A stretch of DNA of 64,000 bases, from positions 25,214 through 89,213 of IMG/VR virus record IMGVR_UViG_3300045125_000140; one strand, written 5' to 3'. The stretch comes from a virus. The position numbers were made by a program, and so were the translations under genes. Within the stretch, counting starts at the first letter, position 1; the number at the start of each line of letters is the position of its first letter. Positions 55,704-64,000 of this stretch are shown one piece after another. The notes under the pieces are model-generated. The model was not told the origin of the DNA and did no database searches. It saw nothing but the letters and a program-made list of their open reading frames with translations.

Positions 55704-55889
55704 ATGAATATCGATGACGTAACCGGCATCAATCAGATGGCGGACAAGTACGACTGGCTCGCGATCGGCGACATCGACGGAGCCGAGTCAAGTGACTTAG
55801 TTCATCACCGCTACGTAAAGATGTTTAAAAACGTCTGCTTCTCGATAGCGGTAGTTTGCAAAGGTCGAAGCGGCGTCGATTATGCTTGA
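55704..55889 (+). CDS. Hypothetical protein
   Basis: 61 aa with a GAGG RBS. Confidence 0.55.
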   Translation: MNIDDVTGINQMADKYDWLAIGDIDGAESSDLVHHRYVKMFKNVCFSIAVVCKGRSGVDYA

Positions 55890-56241
55890 TATGTTTGACC
55901 TAGATAAGGGTCAGCCGCAAATCGTGTGCGCGCTGTCCCATTGGGATATGGATATCCTGGAGAGGCTCTTCAGCCGACTGGACGCAGAGGCGGCTAAGAA
56001 GTGGGCGAACAACGAAGCTAACCGTGAATACGTCCTTTCTCGGAACGGCCTGGTAGCCGTAGAGATGGGTGAGGGGGTTATTCGCGGAAGCGGTATGATC
56101 TGCGCACGACTTCTGGCTAACTGGAATGAAGAGCTCCAGGAGCCCATAACCGGAGACCGGGAAACGAATCTAGTGCTCGACAGCGTCGCAAAGCGCCTCC
56201 CGATTTTTGTAAATCAGGTTATGGAGGCGTTGGCCCCTTGA
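55882..56241 (+). CDS. Hypothetical protein
   Basis: 119 aa overlapping both neighbours. Confidence 0.6.
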   Translation: MLDMFDLDKGQPQIVCALSHWDMDILERLFSRLDAEAAKKWANNEANREYVLSRNGLVAVEMGEGVIRGSGMICARLLANWNEELQEPITGDRETNLVLDSVAKRLPIFVNQVMEALAP

Positions 56242-57302
56242 GCTGGTTATCCAGAACACAGGCGATGGCCAGAAGAGGGATACCCGCGCGACTGCGTAAG
56301 CCCGAGCAGTTTGAGCAGGCTAGGCAGGTGCTAGAGTGCGCGGAGAAGGCGATCATCGACGCGCGCAGCCGAGGAAAGGGGCCCGATGTTCGGGTTATAA
56401 AGATAGAAAGCCGATCTGGGAAAATTCGAAGGCTGGTAGAGCCAATCGAAGAAATCAAGCTGATTCAAAATCTAATCGGTTTAATCGTCCACAACATTCT
56501 GAAAAACACAGGTTCGCTCACCGGCGTTAAGCGGCAGAATCGGAAAGCTGTGCTCAGCCTTCACGGATTCATGAAAGAGCGAAGCATCAAATCGTACGCC
56601 GGCAACCATACTCGAAGAAATGTTGTGGTTAAGATGGACATTAAAAACTATTTTGAATCCATCACTGAACCTCTTATTTTTCGAGCGATGGATAAAGGTG
56701 AGTTAATCGGGTATCACTTTCCAGACTGGCTGCGAAATTATATATCTACGTATTGTCTCTGCTCTACAAATCCTATGCGGATTGCCGACAAGGCGGAGAC
56801 GGCCAGAAAAGCGCTAGCCTTGGGATTTCCGAGCAGTCCTAGCCTAGCAAACGTCGTAAGCGCCTTCTTAGTCGTCCCTCCAATACTGGGGGTACTTAAG
56901 GAGATGGATAAGTACGACATCGCGTTCACCATGTACGCCGACGACATGACCTTCTCTTCGCATTATCCAGAGTGTGCAAAAGTCGCTCGGATAGTTCCGA
57001 TGCTCCTAAAACGGGAAGGACTCAGCATAAATAGTAAAAAGACTAAAATCTTAAAGCAGAGCGCTCGTCAGGTCGTGTGCGGTGTTGTCGTAAATTCTCG
57101 GATGGGCGCAACTCGGGCATATCGACGAGCGCTTCGAAAACAGATTCATCACACGACTAAAGAGCTACTAATTGGTGCGAAAACGCCTGCTAATATTAAC
57201 GTAAGTGTTTTACGTGGGCAGGTGTCGCACGTTGAATTTCTGAACTCGGCGCACGCTGAGTCGTTAAAACGTCAGCTCAAGACGTTGGAGGAGTTGGTAT
57301 GA
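56238..57302 (+). CDS. Retron-type RNA-directed DNA polymerase (start 56238 or 56265)
   Basis: KIRRLVEP..IKLIQ, LHGF, SYAGNH (region-X-like), KMDIKNYFESI, LGFPSSPSLAN, YADDMTFS, INSKKT and QVVCGVVVN (VTG-like). Confidence 0.9.
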   Translation: MSWLSRTQAMARRGIPARLRKPEQFEQARQVLECAEKAIIDARSRGKGPDVRVIKIESRSGKIRRLVEPIEEIKLIQNLIGLIVHNILKNTGSLTGVKRQNRKAVLSLHGFMKERSIKSYAGNHTRRNVVVKMDIKNYFESITEPLIFRAMDKGELIGYHFPDWLRNYISTYCLCSTNPMRIADKAETARKALALGFPSSPSLANVVSAFLVVPPILGVLKEMDKYDIAFTMYADDMTFSSHYPECAKVARIVPMLLKREGLSINSKKTKILKQSARQVVCGVVVNSRMGATRAYRRALRKQIHHTTKELLIGAKTPANINVSVLRGQVSHVEFLNSAHAESLKRQLKTLEELV

Positions 57303-60300
57303 AGAAGGCAATTATTGCTTATCTTAACACGTTCTCGGAGTACGGCGTATCTATTCCGGACGACATGGCCGAGTCCGTAAATAACATCGTGGCCGGAGCC
57401 TCGGAGCAAATCGGCGGTGTTATTGGAAGTAGGGTGTCGTCGACGCCCGTAAAGCTCACGGATGTGACGACGGGAAGCACTGCGGCAGAAATTATCAAAA
57501 AGGCGGCGGAGGGCGGTACCCATAAAGTTACCGTAGAGTTGCTCGGTCGCTCGTCATACACATGGCCTGAGTTTGGTGGAGGTTTCGGTGCGTTCAAATT
57601 TGAGGTACCCGGGATAGTAATAAAGACCCCGAACAACTACGATCAAGCGGCCTCAGAATTTATAACAAGAATCATAGTAACGTGCGCGTCTGATAAATTT
57701 GCGCACCTGTGTACAATTGACAGCAATAACCAAAAACGCTACAGCGTCGCGGGACAGCTGCAGCTGGGTGCAAAGTTTGCGGACCCGGAGTCACGTGCCG
57801 GCGCTGAGTTGCTCGATAAAGACATTAAAGCGCGCGAAGAAGTTCACGTGCTTGAGGCCATTAAACGGCTGCAAAGATTCCGTGAGCTTGATCCGATCAC
57901 CGGAGATAAGGCGGTCATAATCACACCACGATTTAAACTAAATCGTCACGTGATGGATGTGTGTGCTGGAAATACGACAAACCCCGCTAAAGTTTCGGAC
58001 GAGATCTCTTTTGATGTCGAATATGTGTCTCGGCAAGAGATACAGAACGGTTTAGACAAAATAGACGAGGAGTACGTCAATCGAAAAGGGCTCGCTATTC
58101 TGGCCTTCACTTTAACCAGCGAGATCGTAAAACATCTGGTCTCCGTGCGGCCGCTGCTTGATACTCCGACTGATAGATTTGAATTATCCAAGTTTGTCTT
58201 GCAGATGCACAATCAAATCGCGTCTGCCGCGACGTTACGGGACATTACGGTTAGAGACTTCATCAATTTCTTTGACAACGCTGTTTTGCGATCATATACG
58301 AGCACACGGGTTCCTGGGCACTACATCCCGTTGGATCCTCATCAGATTTCGTTAAATTTTATACCATCTGAACTAATCGACGTAAATAAAACTGTTTTCG
58401 GAGGAGAAGATGACGGGAATCTTCTAGAATCTCAAAACTACAAAGCGGTTTGCCTACTCTTAGCAAATATTCTATCACAAACAGCTTATAAACTAGTTCA
58501 ACGAAAATTCAACTATTTACCGAAAATAGAAAATCGATCGGACGAACTGGTTTCCGCAAACTACGTGGCCGGAGACATTGTTGCCGCGAAGATAGTTTCG
58601 GTAGTCGAGCGCAATAACGCCAGGTCAGCACTATGTAAGGGAATCGGTCCGCGTGGCGACATCGCGTTCTTGATTACCGCAACAGTTGAACACAGTCGTG
58701 AAATCTACGACAGGCTCGATGAGGGGGCGGTGATTGTAAAACCGGCATCGAAGTGGCGGCTGGGTATTGTAGACTCAGTGGAGACTTTCAAAAATGCAGT
58801 TCCGTCATCTGGGATGAGGTAATTGGGGCTGAAATTGCGGAATACATAAATGAGAATGTAGGTAGAAATAGAATCTATCCGATCGCCTCACTACGCGGAA
58901 CCCGGTACTGCGGGCTGGAGCACGGTATCGACATCAGCTCTTAACCTCATTAAGAACCTAGATCCAGCTCAGAGAGCTGCTAGAGTTGCGATAAACTACC
59001 CGGATCACCATCTATCGGATAATGTAACTTTTCATTACGCAATAAATACAGTTAACACTGTTCAAAATTTTCCGGATAAAAACTTATCACTCTTGTTGTC
59101 TGGGAGAAAGTCGTATCACAGCGTTTACGGATACTCTTCGTTTGCGTCGGGTTATATAATTAACATGGGAGATAGCTGGTCAACCGGCGAGAGATGGCAC
59201 TACCAGAGTGAAGAGAAGCGGCTCACGAGTCCAAATAATCCAGTTTACATAGCTCCCATATCTCAGCAGCAGTTGGGAGTCGTTTCGATTCGACGAAGCG
59301 CCCAGCAGGTTATGGAAGCGGGATCGGTAACTGCTGCTTGGGCATTTAATCGCGGGCTTCTTAGATTAATCGCGACTGGAAAAGAATTTAAATTCTCGCT
59401 AAACTCCAGCAGCGCTGAGCTCGTAGTCAAAAAGGATGAGATTGTTTTCGGTGGTCGACGATTTAAAAGCTTGCTGGTAAAACCGGTGCCGGATATCTCT
59501 ATAATTGCTAGAACCATCTACACTCGAATTCAGCAAAGAGCTAACATAGCGAACACGTTCGATACGTTCAACGCTCTTCTCGCTGACGGTGCTCAAAAGC
59601 AAGAGGCTCATGACCACCTTAAAAACGATCAAATCTTGATTGAATTCCTGACAGAGGTCGCCAAGCTCCTCCAAGGAGATTATCAAAATGATTTGAAAAC
59701 TCACAGGTTAAACGTGGTGCGATCCGAGACTCGAAGCATGTTTCAGCCGAAGTTTCAAAGAGGCGGGAATAATGCTAACGACAGTGGATTTGACGGACCG
59801 TGGGCGGACATAAACACTCACGAGCTGTCGGAGTTTTCGCGATACGAAATGGCGCGCACGTCGGCGATCGAGACCGACCCTAAAATGCACCTCGCCTCGT
59901 TTCGAAATTCAGAAACTCTTCGACAAAAGCTCTATCCGGCCGTCTTCAGCGGCGACGGGAGCGGAGAAAGCGTTGAGGAGCTGTTTAACTTCAATAACCT
60001 GGTTGAGAGAGTGGTAGAAAGATCGCTGGCACCGGAGCTGTTCATAAAGGGTCAGACATCAGCTGATCTTAAAGCTTCGGGAATGCGGGTCAAAAAGGTG
60101 GACGATAAAACCTGGATCGTGGATATCTTTACGATCGGGGACGTCACCGTCGAGGTGACGGCCGAAACTACTACCGGCGGCGTTCTTAACTCTACCCGGT
60201 ATTTTGTAAACGGCTACCAAATCAAGGCGGTGGAGGTAATTAGAGTCGTTACTATGGCTACGTGTTTTGAGAACACTGAGACATATAACGAAACGGTTGC

Positions 60301-60999
60301 CCAAATCTCCGAGGTGTCTCTCGCGGCCAGAGATATTCTTCAAAATGGTTTCCACGCATCCGTAGATACGAACTACAAGACCTCGAACATTATGCTCGAG
60401 ATCGACCGCATTAAAAATAAGTGGGTTCTCGTAATACGAGACAAGGACGGTAACGTAACCAAGAATGTCCACATTCCTGGGGGCGTGACTCGGTTCATCT
60501 CTGTTCCGAGAATTAGAAACCGCGTAAGAAAAATGACGGTAGAATCTTTTGCGGCACTTCTGGACGGAATTCCGGAATTGGCGTTTATAGATATTAAACG
60601 TATTCACGAAAACGGTTTCACTAGGTACAATGAAATCATCGCCCGATCGAGGAAGTTCTTGGAGGACGTGATTGGTCTGACCAAGGCGTCTTTTGGAACT
60701 TTCGAGCTCGGCGGGGGCGTAACGCTGGCGCCATTTCTGGATACAGCGTAAAGGGAATGTCCGGCAAGTCTTACGTCGTTGCTTGCTCGGATATTGCCAA
60801 AGAAAAGCCGTTCGAGCACGATCACGGCACAAATAAGTTCGGGGCCATCTACTCGATGGAGACGGGCGAATATGTGTGCGTTGTCGACCGCTCGAGCGAC
60901 CAGTCCGGTTACGATGTTATCGCCAACAGGTTGTTGGCGATGTCGAACGACGTGGCTCTTGTGGATCAAATCCACACCTTAGGAAAGTTTGTTAGTTAA
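57299..60999 (+). CDS. Very large hypothetical protein (~1,200 aa), probably one gene split by indels
   Basis: ORFs 57299..58822, 58753..58944, 59093..60751 and 60757..60999 abut or overlap. The 59093 frame is open upstream to about 58890 with no start or RBS. ATGA overlap with the RT. Confidence 0.6.
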
Positions 61000-61000
61000 T

Positions 61001-61210
61001 ATGGTTACGATCAAAGTTGCTTCTCCTCGTGGACACGACGTTCTCGAACTCGCTCCGGCCGACGCGGTGGCTAAGCTCCGCGGCTTCCTGAACGACAAGA
61101 AGTTCGTCTACATCAACGGCCGCATTGTTACGGCCGCCACCCCGATCACGGAAGAAATGGTCACCACGGCTGAGGCGATCACCGTGGCGCCCAATCTTCA
61201 GGGCGGCTGA
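61001..61210 (+). CDS. Ubiquitin-like (beta-grasp) protein
   Basis: 69 aa with VYINGR, ending ITVAPNLQGG*. Confidence 0.8.
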   Translation: MVTIKVASPRGHDVLELAPADAVAKLRGFLNDKKFVYINGRIVTAATPITEEMVTTAEAITVAPNLQGG

Positions 61211-61212
61211 TC

Positions 61213-61664
61213 TTGCGCCGGGTTGTCTACTACGACAACCGGGTAACTGAAGAAATGGTTTCGCACGCGCTCCGGCACCCTTACGAAGAAATTTGTGGGG
61301 TGCTGGAGGGCAAATATCTTAGCCCCGAGGGAGCAATCTCTCGGGGTGAAGATTTCATCGTGCGAGTCACCGCATACTACCCGGTTAAAAATACGGCTTC
61401 CGACAAGCTCGGCGGGTTCACTATGGATCCGTACGAGACAAAAGCGGCGTGGGACGCGATCATTGAACGCGGTAACCACGTTGTCGGCTGCTACCACAGC
61501 CATCCATTATGGTCGTCGAAGTTCTCGGCCATCGATCTAAGAGAAGCAAAAATGCAGGCGGATGAGCTACTGTGGCTCATCTATGGAAAAAGGACGATCG
61601 CATCTCCGCGTTTGTCTTGGACAAGGATCGAATCAACCTTGTGGAATTGGAGGTGGATGTATGA
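61213..61664 (+). CDS. JAB/MPN+ metallopeptidase; indel near 61590
   Basis: EEICGVL and YHSHP...SAID; the corrected frame ends ...LVELEVDV* overlapping the E1 ATG. Confidence 0.85.
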
Positions 61665-62257
61665 AGAATATGCACATCGTGGGCTGCGGCGGAATCGGCT
61701 CGTACTTCTGCGGCGAAGTCGACCGGCTCGTAAAGACGCAGCAGCTCAAGGACTTGATGGTCACTATCTGGGATGGTGACGACGTCGAGCTCAAAAACCT
61801 CACGTATCAAAACTTCAGCGAAAACGAGGTCTACGCCAACAAGGCGGCTACGCTCGGTCGCAGATATCAGCTAAACTCGGCTCAGAGCCGGGTGGAAGAC
61901 TTTGATAAGCCCCCGATCAACGACGCCACTATCATCGTTTTGTGCGTCGATAACGTCAAAACTCGAAAAGCGTTTTTCGAAAGCCGCCTCTTCGAGAGGG
62001 TGCAGTGGATCGATCTCCGGTCGCAGGGCCGCGCGGTGGCGTACTACTGCTCTTCGAAAATGACCACTCGGGAGTTCATGCTCTCGACTCTTCCGGAAAA
62101 ACAGGAGGAGGGTACCGGCTCCTGCCAGTACGCTACAGATATTCTGAACAATCGTATCGAGAACGGCAACAAGATCGTTGCCGCTATCGGCGCGCAAGTG
62201 CTCTTAAATCTTGTTCGAAAAGAACAACTGGTTTCGAACTACATCCACGAGTTCTAA
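61661..62257 (+). CDS. ThiF/E1-like adenylating enzyme
   Basis: IVGCGGIGS, WDGDDVELKNLTYQNF, NKA, LCVDN, WIDLRSQG and GSCQ. Confidence 0.88.
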   Translation: MKNMHIVGCGGIGSYFCGEVDRLVKTQQLKDLMVTIWDGDDVELKNLTYQNFSENEVYANKAATLGRRYQLNSAQSRVEDFDKPPINDATIIVLCVDNVKTRKAFFESRLFERVQWIDLRSQGRAVAYYCSSKMTTREFMLSTLPEKQEEGTGSCQYATDILNNRIENGNKIVAAIGAQVLLNLVRKEQLVSNYIHEF

Positions 62258-62267
62258 ACTACTAACG

Positions 62268-62536
62268 GTGAAGAACGAGATCAGGGAGTACATCAAGCAG
62301 CATAAAACGGATAAACCGTGTTTTGATTGCGGCAAGGTGTACCCCTGGTACGTTATGGATTATGATCACTTGGAAGGGAAACGGTTTAATATCGGCAGCG
62401 CTAGAAAGACCGTTCCCTCGATATCATCAAGAAGGAAATACGGAAGTGTCAAGTGGTTTGCGCTAACTGCCACCGAGAGCGTACTTATCAAAGGCAGCAA
62501 AAAAAGAAAAACCCTCTTGACTCGATATCCGAGTGA
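62268..62536 (+). CDS. HNH endonuclease-like protein; frameshift near 62418
   Basis: PCFDCG...MDYDHL, then EIRKCQVVCANCHRERT in the shifted frame. Confidence 0.7.
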
Positions 62537-62542
62537 TATAAT
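62517..62542 (+). promoter_or_regulatory. Sigma-70-type extended -10 promoter
   Basis: TGATATAAT at 62534-62542; TTGACT upstream at short spacing; ACTCG/CGAGT inverted repeat between them. Confidence 0.45.
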
Positions 62543-62590
62543 AATTCCGACGTGGATTGGGTTTTGTTAACTCGGACCTGAGGAAATGAG

Positions 62591-62776
62591 ATGGCCAGAA
62601 AGTTCGAAGTGTCCTTATGGGTAGAAGTATCCATGGACGTAAACGCCGAAACTCACGAAGACGCTGAAGCGCGGGCGCTCTCTAAGCTGGAGAACGCCGC
62701 GACGCATGCCGGCATAAAGATACGGGATGCCGGGCAGCCGACGTCTACGGAGCACACGCCAGAAAAGAAACGGTGA
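62591..62776 (+). CDS. Small hypothetical protein
   Basis: 61 aa with VNAETHEDAEARA. Confidence 0.6.
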   Translation: MARKFEVSLWVEVSMDVNAETHEDAEARALSKLENAATHAGIKIRDAGQPTSTEHTPEKKR

Positions 62777-62817
62777 GTGCGGGGAGCTGGACTAACCTCC
62801 AGCTCCCATCCCCTCCT

Positions 62818-62891
62818 CGGCCTTTAGCTCAGTTGGTTAGAGCCGACGTCTTATACACGTCTGGTCCCCGGTTCGAGTCCGGGAAGGCCGA
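62818..62891 (+). tRNA. tRNA-Ile(UAU)
   Basis: CGGCCTT/AAGGCCG acceptor stem, TAGCTCAGTTGGTTAGAGC, GACGT-CTTATAC-ACGTC and CCCGG-TTCGAGT-CCGGG. Confidence 0.88.
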
Positions 62892-62892
62892 T

Positions 62893-63597
62893 ATGCGCGA
62901 GCAAGTAATGGCGGCGGTGGCTAGAATTGTTCCTGAGATCACAGCCGCTTGCAAAGAAAAATATGGAAGATGCGCACCGCCCGATGAGGTAATAGAAACG
63001 GTAACCAATCTTATCGTGAATTGGTTGCCCTCATTTGGTGCGATTAAAAAGGTTGAAGGAAAACCTCTGGAAAACCTGGGCGAACGTGTTCGCGAATTTC
63101 TTACGAAAGACGGCGCTCCGTATACACTGTCCGAAAAGCAGGTTGCCGAATTAGCGGCTCTCGGTGTTTCGGTAAACAGGGTGCGTATGGACGCGTCATC
63201 TGTGCGGGCCTGGAATACGGATAAGTATCGCTACGACCCGTCTGACGCAAAGCCTCTCCCTGACAACTCGGCGCTCGGAGACGTCGTCAAGGCTTTGCAA
63301 GCGGCAAAAACAATCTCTCCGGAAAACTTAAGGTCAGCTGTCCCATTTACGGTCAAGGGACGCAAGCAAAACAAATACGTCATTATCAAAGAAGACATGA
63401 CGTTTGAGTGCTCAAACAAGCCCCAGGAAGGGGACATGACCATTTTGGGTGAAAGGCTCTGGCCGAGCTTAGTAGCTCTAGACGATACTAAAGCGTTTTG
63501 GAAGGTCGGCATGTGTCCGACCGGACGCTTACTTGTTATCACCGACGGCGTCACTATAAGTGCCGTATCTGTGTTACGGGAGAAAACACATGAATAA
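62893..63597 (+). CDS. Hypothetical protein (true start after the tRNA)
   Basis: ORF-track start 62773 runs through the tRNA; the ATG at 62893 gives MREQVMAAV. Confidence 0.65.
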   Translation: MREQVMAAVARIVPEITAACKEKYGRCAPPDEVIETVTNLIVNWLPSFGAIKKVEGKPLENLGERVREFLTKDGAPYTLSEKQVAELAALGVSVNRVRMDASSVRAWNTDKYRYDPSDAKPLPDNSALGDVVKALQAAKTISPENLRSAVPFTVKGRKQNKYVIIKEDMTFECSNKPQEGDMTILGERLWPSLVALDDTKAFWKVGMCPTGRLLVITDGVTISAVSVLREKTHE

Positions 63598-63802
63598 AGA
63601 GATTGAAGAACGCGTCAACTTGCTTTACCGGAAAAAGAAAGTTATTGAAAACAAAATCAATAGCTACCTGATATTTCTAAAAAACAACCCCAATGATTCG
63701 TTTCAAAACGACTACAGGAAGATGATTGACGATCTGGAAGAGAGGCTCGCCAAAACGGACGAGATACTGGCTAATATTAAAGAGCTATGCAAACCTTCCT
63801 GA
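63590..63802 (+). CDS. Small coiled-coil protein
   Basis: GGGAG RBS; starts MNKEIEERV. Confidence 0.6.
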   Translation: MNKEIEERVNLLYRKKKVIENKINSYLIFLKNNPNDSFQNDYRKMIDDLEERLAKTDEILANIKELCKPS

Positions 63803-64000
63803 TAAGTCGATCGTTCCTGGTTACGGCGCAAGCTCTCGACGATAAACGTCTAGGCAAGCAACGCGTCGAAACCTTGCAAATCTTAAACACACTCACTGGA
63901 AAATCTAAGGGATGGGTAAACCATCCTGCCGTTAAAATGTGGAAAGGGCACGAAGGTGCTCTGATACGTTACGGCGAGGCTATGATAGGTGAGTGGCGGC
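63787..64000 (+). CDS. Pyrimidine-dimer DNA glycosylase (endonuclease V-like), partial
   Basis: MQTFL...LDDKRLGKQRVETLQI...GWVNHPAVKMWKGHE; runs off the window. Confidence 0.85.
   Translation, partial: MQTFLISRSFLVTAQALDDKRLGKQRVETLQILNTLTGKSKGWVNHPAVKMWKGHEGALIRYGEAMIGEWR

Follow-up and report, generated by a model that had tools for sequence, protein, structure and literature searches.

The Ubl-JAB-E1 module and the giant gene upstream of it

We analyzed a 64,000-nucleotide stretch of viral DNA (the window), positions 25214-89213 of the IMG/VR virus record IMGVR_UViG_3300045125_000140 (155,302 bases). It encodes a ubiquitin-like protein (Ubl), a JAB metallopeptidase and a minimal E1-like adenylyltransferase directly downstream of a gene for a giant protein. 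The Ubl-JAB-E1 module is real, and its linkage to the giant gene is strict. With about as much belief as doubt, we read these genes as a phage operon for protein conjugation of the Ubl, in which an acceptor resembling ubiquitin-conjugating (E2) enzymes is fused to a fast-evolving giant protein. The gene set, the integrity of its motifs, the invariance of one Cys in the E1 and another in the tail of the giant protein, and the order of the predicted fold of that tail suggest a virus-owned protein-tagging machine of undescribed build. Conservation was scored in three alignments: A1, the last 300 residues of 30 giant proteins; A2, the E1 family, with invariant columns scored over 21 sequences; and A3, the last 138 residues of 37 giant proteins. 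The elements concerned are listed below, with lengths in amino acids (aa).

57299-60999, plus strand: gene of the giant protein, about 1230 codons on read-through, traced by tblastn of the P0031 and L008 proteins
57299-58822 (507 aa), 59093-60751 (552 aa) and 60757-60999 (80 aa), plus strand: pieces of the giant gene as assembled
60269-60271, plus strand: first invariant Cys of the conserved C-terminal module (MATCFEN in the window, consensus RALCF; column C57 of A1; coordinate derived from the TCFEN start at 60266)
60641-60999, plus strand: putative E2-like C-terminal domain, interrupted by the G5-run break; predicted elements are a long helix (ARSRKFLED...), four strands, the loop with the Cys and a further three helices
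60877-60879, plus strand: candidate acceptor Cys (YVCVVD; column C98 of A3, C260 of A1)
61001-61210, plus strand: putative Ubl, 69 aa from its ATG, ending APNLQGG before the stop
61213-61663, plus strand: JAB/JAMM metallopeptidase, about 150 aa in relatives, matching Pfam Prok-JAB
61661-62257, plus strand: minimal E1-like adenylyltransferase, 198 aa, matching Pfam ThiF and 23 homologues

Twelve loci (the window and L002-L013) were inspected for linkage. The giant gene was directly upstream of JAB-E1 in all 12, over E1 identities from 99% down to 34%. The Ubl gene lay between the giant gene and JAB-E1, the exception being L011, in which it is found just upstream of the giant gene. In the window, the three smaller genes are closely packed on the plus strand (61001-62257), and the Ubl start overlaps the stop of the giant gene (TAATATG). 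The very close contigs L008-L010 encode a giant protein of 1212-1221 aa, followed by a Ubl of 69 aa, a JAB of 150 aa and an E1 of 198 aa; the nearest relative of the giant protein is P0031 (1210 aa).

The E1 matched Pfam ThiF with an E value of 4.6e-8 (33 bits vs. a cut-off of 28.1). Its start, the ATG at 61661, is backed by the 23 homologues (194-207 aa), which align from that residue. In A2, the residues G8xG10G11xG13, D38, D40, K61, D97 and R102 are invariant, and the E1 carries the motifs GCGGIGS, D38xD40, KNLxYQ, K61 and CVDN, with Tyr in KNLxYQ where the canonical NLxRQ has Arg. The sequence GSCQ occupies residues 153-156, 13 residues ahead of a conserved GNxIxAxxGxQ helix; S154-C155-Q156 is invariant, and the Cys155 codon is 62123-62125. 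ThiF and E1 enzymes carry their active cysteine at the position corresponding to this SCQ, and Cys155 is the putative thioester former. We found no CxxC pairs (no Zn-binding CxxC), UFD, rhodanese or extra domain in the E1. When the family profile was compared with the PDB, the nearest solved structures were distant (MccB, the Bub E1 9egc and UBA3, E about 1e-6).

The JAB matched Pfam Prok-JAB with an E value of 1e-16 (61.2 bits), and its JAMM site is intact, with E25/E26 (EEICG), H95-S-H97 (HSHP) and S105-x-x-D108 (SAID). Among the NCBIfam models, the desampylase model scored best (59.8 bits, under its cut-off). As for the Ubl, G68 and G69 are invariant in eight orthologues, and five of the eight end at GG. 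Three lineages encode precursor-type Ubls, which continue for 160 aa beyond LGGG in L004 (4728-5438), about 75 aa beyond KGG in L011 (3479-3955), and an acidic 31-aa tail beyond AGG in L013 (6194-6514). These precursor extensions provide a processing job for the JAB. Additional genes lie between Ubl and JAB in L003 (4722-5552, 276 aa) and L013 (6534-6926, 130 aa). They are not conserved elsewhere and may be selfish, homing-endonuclease-like insertions.

A preliminary description of this region had named a Ubl ending in GG, a JAB and a minimal 198-aa E1 with SCQ near its end and no CxxC pairs, accompanied by neither a standalone E2 nor thiamine or molybdopterin genes. All of this held: a six-frame search of the 155-kb record found no UQ_con, Prok-E2_A or Prok-E2_B, and no ThiS, ThiG or MoaE. 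The start coordinate it had given to the feature, 60604, is that of a mechanical open reading frame (ORF) on the minus strand (60604-60975) and marks no feature boundary.

The conserved tail of the giant protein

With the 80-aa Cys segment as the query, an exhaustive HMMER search returned 45 matches, of which about 40 were genuine; five were discarded as unrelated repeat proteins. The segment forms the C-terminal end of every full-length homologue, in proteins of 675-1407 aa. The preliminary description had taken YVCVVD...NRLLAMSND as the end of the preceding protein. This is true of the relatives (P0031, L008-L010), whereas in the window as assembled the segment lies in the separate 80-aa ORF. 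In the 12 long forms, the approximately 900 N-terminal residues are barely conserved and the last 280 or so are conserved. A1 contains 15 invariant columns, two of which are cysteines (RALCF; Y-I-C-I-V-D-K). The candidate acceptor is the latter Cys; it is invariant in 37/37 sequences of A3 and 30/30 of A1, down to about 25% identity, as the preliminary description, which had suggested checking its conservation, would expect of a thioester acceptor. In A3, the Cys, D+3, G, R, A, N, D and T are invariant, and Q, D and N are nearly so.

The evolutionary rates differ along the operon. The identity to L008 is 37% for the giant body and 46% for the reverse transcriptase (RT) encoded upstream, vs. 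92% for the tail, 84% for the Ubl, 85% for the JAB, 77% for the E1 and 78-93% for the flanking genes. With a tail and enzymes that change slowly beside a fast body, the pattern looks more like that of an interaction surface under pressure than that of a biosynthetic enzyme, and the contrast between fast body and frozen tail hints at an arms race. The giant protein had no match, over any part of its length, to a Pfam, PHROG, PADLOC or NCBIfam family.

The structure of the tail was predicted with AlphaFold2 on our own alignments, as a 300-aa model (predicted local distance difference test score, pLDDT, 89) and a 138-aa model (pLDDT 85.7). The 138-aa model consists of a long helix, strands at residues 39-45, 48-56, 62-66 and 88-90, Cys98, and helices at 109-120, 122-125 and 130-136. 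The predicted order, a helix, a four-strand meander, then the Cys loop, then helices, resembles that of a UBC domain. By secondary-structure order, the candidate Cys is placed in the loop between strand 4 and helix 2, 8-10 residues past the strand and 11 before the next helix. The residues just ahead of the Cys are variable and poorly modelled (pLDDT <50 at residues 79-82). The model was searched against 48,161 chains, and about 29 of the top 50 matches were UBC, UEV or RWD domains. Among them were VPS37A, Tsg101, E2S, Ubc9, UBE2F, Ubc8, Ubc13, UbcH5, UBE2J2, UBE2W, UbcH10, FANCL, Fts, GCN2, other RWDs and kinetochore RWDs, and, from bacteria, BubB (9eav_D) and the Cap2 E2 domain (7to3_A). The 300-aa model agreed over its residues 183-300, where CdnG-E2 (8hsb_B) was also matched. 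Comparison of a predicted structure with UBC folds had been proposed in the preliminary description, and its outcome, a UBC-like order with the best PDB matches dominated by UBC/UEV/RWD folds, agrees with what was anticipated there.

Other identities for the tail were considered. The ESM Atlas, queried by features, yielded no usable match for the domain or for P0029; queried by structure, its sole named lead was a DUF4132/DUF7737 cluster (TM score 0.58). Pfam DUF7737 was detected below its cut-off in 4/37 tail members (best E 4.8e-4). It matches the Deinococcus and Bacteroides control genomes and not E. coli K-12, and in the E. coli DUF4132 protein YehI there is neither a DUF7737 nor any profile similarity to the tail domain. 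Sub-threshold matches of single members to DpnII (E 1.8e-4) and FokI_D1 (E 1e-3) raised the possibility of a PD-(D/E)xK nuclease. We set it aside because there is no conserved D...(D/E)xK and because the tail is modelled as a four-strand meander, not an alpha-beta-beta-beta-alpha-beta core. A RelA/SpoT match of the tail (PDB profile, E 0.44) was judged to be noise.

Proposed mechanism and the evidence on both sides

In the reading we favor, the Ubl would be made ready, ending in GG, or in some lineages as a precursor, which the JAB would trim; the JAB may also be able to remove the tag again. The E1 would adenylate the C-terminus of the Ubl and take the Ubl onto its invariant crossover-loop Cys (GSCQ). 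From there the Ubl would pass to the invariant Cys of the compact UBC-like tail of the giant protein and end up on lysines of target proteins, from host or phage, that the variable N-terminal body may pick. Adenylation, both thioesters, transfer to lysine and the role in target selection are inferred. UBE2O and BIRC6 are eukaryotic giant E2/E3 hybrids with a UBC-type domain near the C-terminus and a remainder that binds substrates. The phage protein might follow the same E2/E3 hybrid logic; the likeness is of logic only, with no detectable homology.

This conjugation reading draws on the linkage of the giant gene to Ubl-JAB-E1 in every locus inspected, and on a conserved tail that is always the C-terminal end and whose Cys and neighbors are invariant or nearly so over 37 sequences. 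It also draws on the UBC-like order in two independent confident models with top matches dominated by UBC/UEV/RWD domains, and on an E1 that has all adenylation motifs and an invariant Cys. The Ubl precursors, the contrast in evolutionary rates and the lack of sulfur partners in the record add to it. A fuller version is possible but more doubtful than probable: that large uncultured phages own a Ubl machine in which a sequence-orphan UBC-like domain sits on a giant diversifying recognition protein (a viral E2/E3 hybrid), receives its charge from a Cys-bearing E1 of the smallest type known, is used early in infection to tag host or own proteins for takeover or counter-defence, and in one clade is translationally coupled to a retron-type RT.

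Several observations weigh against an E2-like tail. Foldseek against the PDB gave no match at E <= 0.001 for either model; hmmscan of the 37 members at E <= 10 found no UQ_con, Prok-E2_A to E, RWD or UEV; and the tail profile, run against PDB sequences, found no solved E2. No conserved HPN motif precedes the Cys in the alignments, and the candidate Cys, lying inside a hydrophobic Y-I-C-I-V, could be a buried structural residue instead. The conserved module has a second invariant Cys, about 200 residues upstream of the candidate, for which the conjugation reading does not account. On the Ubl side, there was no ThiS, MoaD or ubiquitin match in Pfam and no PDB sequence match, and the product of 61001-61210 is a putative Ubl by its size, position and terminus, its beta-grasp fold being assumed. 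An E2 is not required in every such system, since prokaryotic Ubl systems without one are known (SAMP, TtuB). The giant gene and the JAB are frame-broken in the window assembly. The record is incomplete (estimated completeness 81%), and gene absences are therefore no proof. A complex prediction with two E1 copies, the Ubl and the C-terminal domain gave a median score of 0.49, and the control with the E1 replaced scored 0.57, an outcome that counts neither for nor against binding.

Frame breaks in the window assembly

As the P0031 and L008 proteins showed in tblastn, homology to the giant protein covers 57299-60718 of the window in one frame and 60727-60993 in another. The breaks in the giant gene and the JAB were placed as follows.

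58789-58793, plus strand: first frame break in the giant gene, within an A5 run (ttcAAAAAtgc), from a three-frame comparison with P0031, L008 and L009
58862-58944, plus strand: interval containing the compensating frame change in the giant gene
60713-60717, plus strand: G5-run break between the frames of the 552-aa and 80-aa ORFs; homology of the 80-aa frame extends upstream of its ATG
61587-61591, plus strand: JAB frame break at an A5 run, seen as a 1-nt gap in the DNA alignment with L008-L010 and as two frames in tblastn

One extra A at 58789-58793 yields TFKKCSS, in agreement with the KKC of the relatives. Downstream of it, three in-frame stops (TAA, TAA and TAG) fall within 42 nt (58820-58861), and the homology moves to the second frame and returns before 58944. 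Stop-codon recoding at this site was rejected because of these clustered stops and because the second frame carries the homology. At the G5 run, the ORF 59093-60751 stops with TAA at 60749-60751, and the Cys segment is in another frame. Read from 60715, the 80-aa frame gives GRNAGAISGYSVKGMSGKSY, which aligns with TGYSVKGMSGRSY of P0031, and continues as ...AISGYSVKGMSGKSY, alignable to the relatives. A programmed -1 frameshift at the G5 run was also rejected, given that the ORF of the relatives is continuous, that there is no canonical slippery heptamer and that four other nearby genes are broken. In the JAB, the frame is lost after residue 127, and the mechanical ORF extends to 61779.

Alternative explanations

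One alternative is that the module is decaying in this genome, with the giant gene and the JAB reduced to pseudogenes and the tail no longer part of a large protein. In line with this, the giant gene is frame-broken at three or more sites and the JAB at one. Against it, three unrelated neighbors are also broken in comparison with L008 (a 181-aa gene at about 55860-55890, an 83-aa HNH-like gene at about 62417 and a 249-aa gene at about 64440). The breaks thus cluster at 55.7-64.5 kb in at least five genes, and both flanks are intact (six genes at 52.5-55 kb and eight at 65.6-70.8 kb; all L008 genes were compared). A 1-nt deficit in an A5 or G5 run accounts for four of the six breaks that were mapped. 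Homopolymers of 6 or longer are missing between 55686 and 62499, whereas close relatives have about one per kb. Stops do not accumulate beyond those at 58820-58861, and the broken pieces still align end to end with the relatives. These features fit local error better, and the breaks are probably sequencing or assembly (homopolymer) errors rather than biology; we regard decay as unlikely. With the breaks read as error, the biological object is best described from the intact relatives, namely as one giant gene ending in the Cys segment.

Two further alternatives accept an intact module and change the role of the tail. Tagging could be independent of an E2, as in SAMP/UbaA/HvJAMM1 or TtuB/TtuC. 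The E1 alone would activate the Ubl, the giant protein would be the main target, a scaffold or an adaptor, and the tail would be a non-catalytic UEV/RWD-like module that binds the Ubl or the E1, its Cys being structural. Absolute invariance of the Cys over 37 sequences is unusual for a purely structural residue, an invariant polar cluster (D, Q, D, N, R, N, D) flanks it, and the E1 retains an invariant Cys of its own; we consider this explanation quite unlikely. The other alternative is a sulfur relay, in which the Ubl is a carrier adenylated by the E1 and converted to a thiocarboxylate via host persulfide, the two-Cys giant protein is a novel sulfurtransferase whose substrate is a nucleic-acid base, nucleotide or cofactor, and the JAB serves in carrier maturation only, as it does in CysO/Mec+ or QbsE/QbsD. 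Known sulfur-carrier operons indeed combine a small protein ending in GG, a ThiF-type E1 free of extra domains and a JAB (Iyer et al. 2006, PMC1779556). The two invariant cysteines of the conserved module of the giant protein and the position of the relatives' module amid RNR, dUTPase/DCD, ThyX and dNMP kinase genes point in the same direction. The preliminary description had kept sulfur transfer as the alternative because the four tRNAs of the phage all have U34. They do, and one is Lys-UUU. Among the four, only the Lys-UUU type receives 2-thiolation at U34, which leaves the tRNA argument weak. The six-frame search also covered PP-loop ATPase, MnmA, rhodanese, cysteine desulfurase and MoaD; in the record none of these turned up, nor did ThiS, ThiG or MoaE, and the control genomes matched. 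This lowers the sulfur reading, although enzymes of the host could stand in and the estimated completeness of the record is 81%. The Ubl falls outside the Pfam ThiS/MoaD families, no enzyme domain is recognizable in the giant protein, its body evolves far faster than the module enzymes, and long Ubl precursor extensions are more typical of modifiers. Sulfur relay is unlikely in our estimate, slightly more so than E2-independent tagging. The earlier preference for conjugation over sulfur relay, with the Cys as acceptor, is thus favored by the Cys invariance, the UBC-like model and the missing sulfur partners, and is qualified by a possible sulfur supply from the host.

Comparison with known systems

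To our knowledge, all prokaryotic Ubl conjugation characterized so far belongs to hosts, with Bil, Bub and CBASS Cap2/Cap3 serving defence and SAMP and TtuB known from archaea and Thermus. In the literature searched, we found no description of a virus-encoded set of E1, E2-like protein, Ubl and JAB. PADLOC gave weak generic hits only (JAB, E 4e-6; E1-E2, E 2e-5, on the Rossmann part) and none for the Ubl and the giant protein. Judged by these profiles, the phage module is a member of neither Bil nor Bub.

Among the closest known systems are the bacterial Bil operons (types I and II), in which BilA (Ubl), BilB (E2), BilC (JAB) and BilD (E1) act against phages by a conjugation like that of ISG15 (Chambers et al. 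10.1101/2023.09.26.559546; Hor et al. 10.1101/2023.09.04.556158; summarized in PMC11601596). Both combine a Ubl with a C-terminal Gly, a JAB, an E1 with a (here putative) catalytic Cys and a Cys-bearing UBC module (in the phage, a putative UBC-like one) in one operon, and both lack a separate E3, the E2 being proposed to choose the target. The differences are that Bil is host-encoded and the phage module is phage-encoded; that the Bil E1 is of the IAD-AAD-CYS type, whereas the phage E1 is a single 198-aa adenylation domain; and that the E2-like domain of the phage has no similarity to BilB or any Pfam E2, lacks HPN and is fused to the end of a variable protein of 675-1407 aa.

The Bub (6E/DUF6527) operons use serine oxyesters and have no catalytic cysteines (Ye et al. 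2024, PMC11601596). Like the phage module, for which the processing and the E2 are putative, they have a minimal E1, processed precursors and an E2 that has diverged. In contrast, the phage E1 and E2-like domain keep invariant cysteines where Bub has serines, there is no DUF6527 protease, and the gene fusions differ. In type II CBASS (the anti-phage signaling system based on cyclic oligonucleotides), with an E2-E1 fusion (Cap2) and a JAB (Cap3), Cap2 conjugates the CD-NTase itself and there is no free Ubl; the E2 of Cap2 is fused to the E1, whereas that proposed for the phage is fused to the giant protein, and no CD-NTase is present. Like the phage module, SAMP/UbaA/HvJAMM1, TtuB/TtuC, CysO/Mec+ and QbsE/QbsD have a small protein ending in GG together with a ThiF-type E1 and a JAB (PMC1779556). 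Unlike the phage module, these E2-less or sulfur-carrier systems adjoin sulfur-using enzymes or rhodanese-bearing E1s; the obligatory neighbor of the phage module is a giant, non-enzymatic-looking protein. The phage Ubl-JAB pairs reported by Iyer et al. (2006, PMC1779556) are all in tail-assembly clusters and have no E1.

If the tail is a real E2, E2 function can hide in domains that sequence profiles miss. The E1 and the tail (198 aa and about 135 aa) would then offer a minimal E1-E2 pair for mechanistic work, and phages would be tagging proteins against their hosts, a mirror image of Bil.

Distribution and genomic neighborhood

The C-terminal tail domain was absent from GenBank phages (a collection of 50,697 records), and a DNA search of GenBank phages gave tRNA matches only. 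An E1-based search of viral contigs for related loci found none. Distant ThiF-family genes of Bacillus phage vB_BceM_WH1 (gp216, L016) and Vibrio phage D69 (L015), both cultured jumbo phages, were set aside as a different module; they share 27-36% identity with part of the E1 and stand in other contexts, e.g., beside a NADAR gene.

The module is surrounded by large-phage genes for replication and nucleotide metabolism, namely those for ribonucleotide reductase (RNR), dUTPase/DCD, ThyX, sigma factors, DNA polymerase A and a RecA-like protein. In the window, the giant gene is preceded by an RT gene.

56238-57302, plus strand: retron-type RT (Pfam RVT_1; PADLOC RT_III-A, E 1e-43), YADD present

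Its stop codon overlaps with the giant gene's start, an arrangement shared by L005 and L008-L010. This link is limited to the clade of the window; in other lineages, RNR or other genes precede the giant gene. Directly before the giant gene in short-form lineages there is a protein of 119-137 aa (DxW...GLW...YPDxxNFLV; L003:1702-2109, L004:2325-2684, L012:3559-3948 and L013:3573-3986). It was not seen in the clade of the window, where the RT takes its place, and it may be a fifth component of the module.

Downstream of the module, a small HNH-endonuclease-like ORF (62211-62570; PHROG 3106, E 3e-7) overlaps the E1 stop; its 83-aa counterpart in L008 maps to 62274-62515 in two frames. A tRNA-Ile (anticodon UAU) at 62817-62892 falls within the 5' portion of a mechanical ORF of 274 aa (62773-63597). 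Since the 234-aa homologue of L008 maps only to 62893-63591, the real gene probably begins after the tRNA-Ile. Finally, the open-ended ORF 63787-63999 resembles a pyrimidine-dimer DNA glycosylase, and its counterpart in L009 carries Pfam Pyr_excise.

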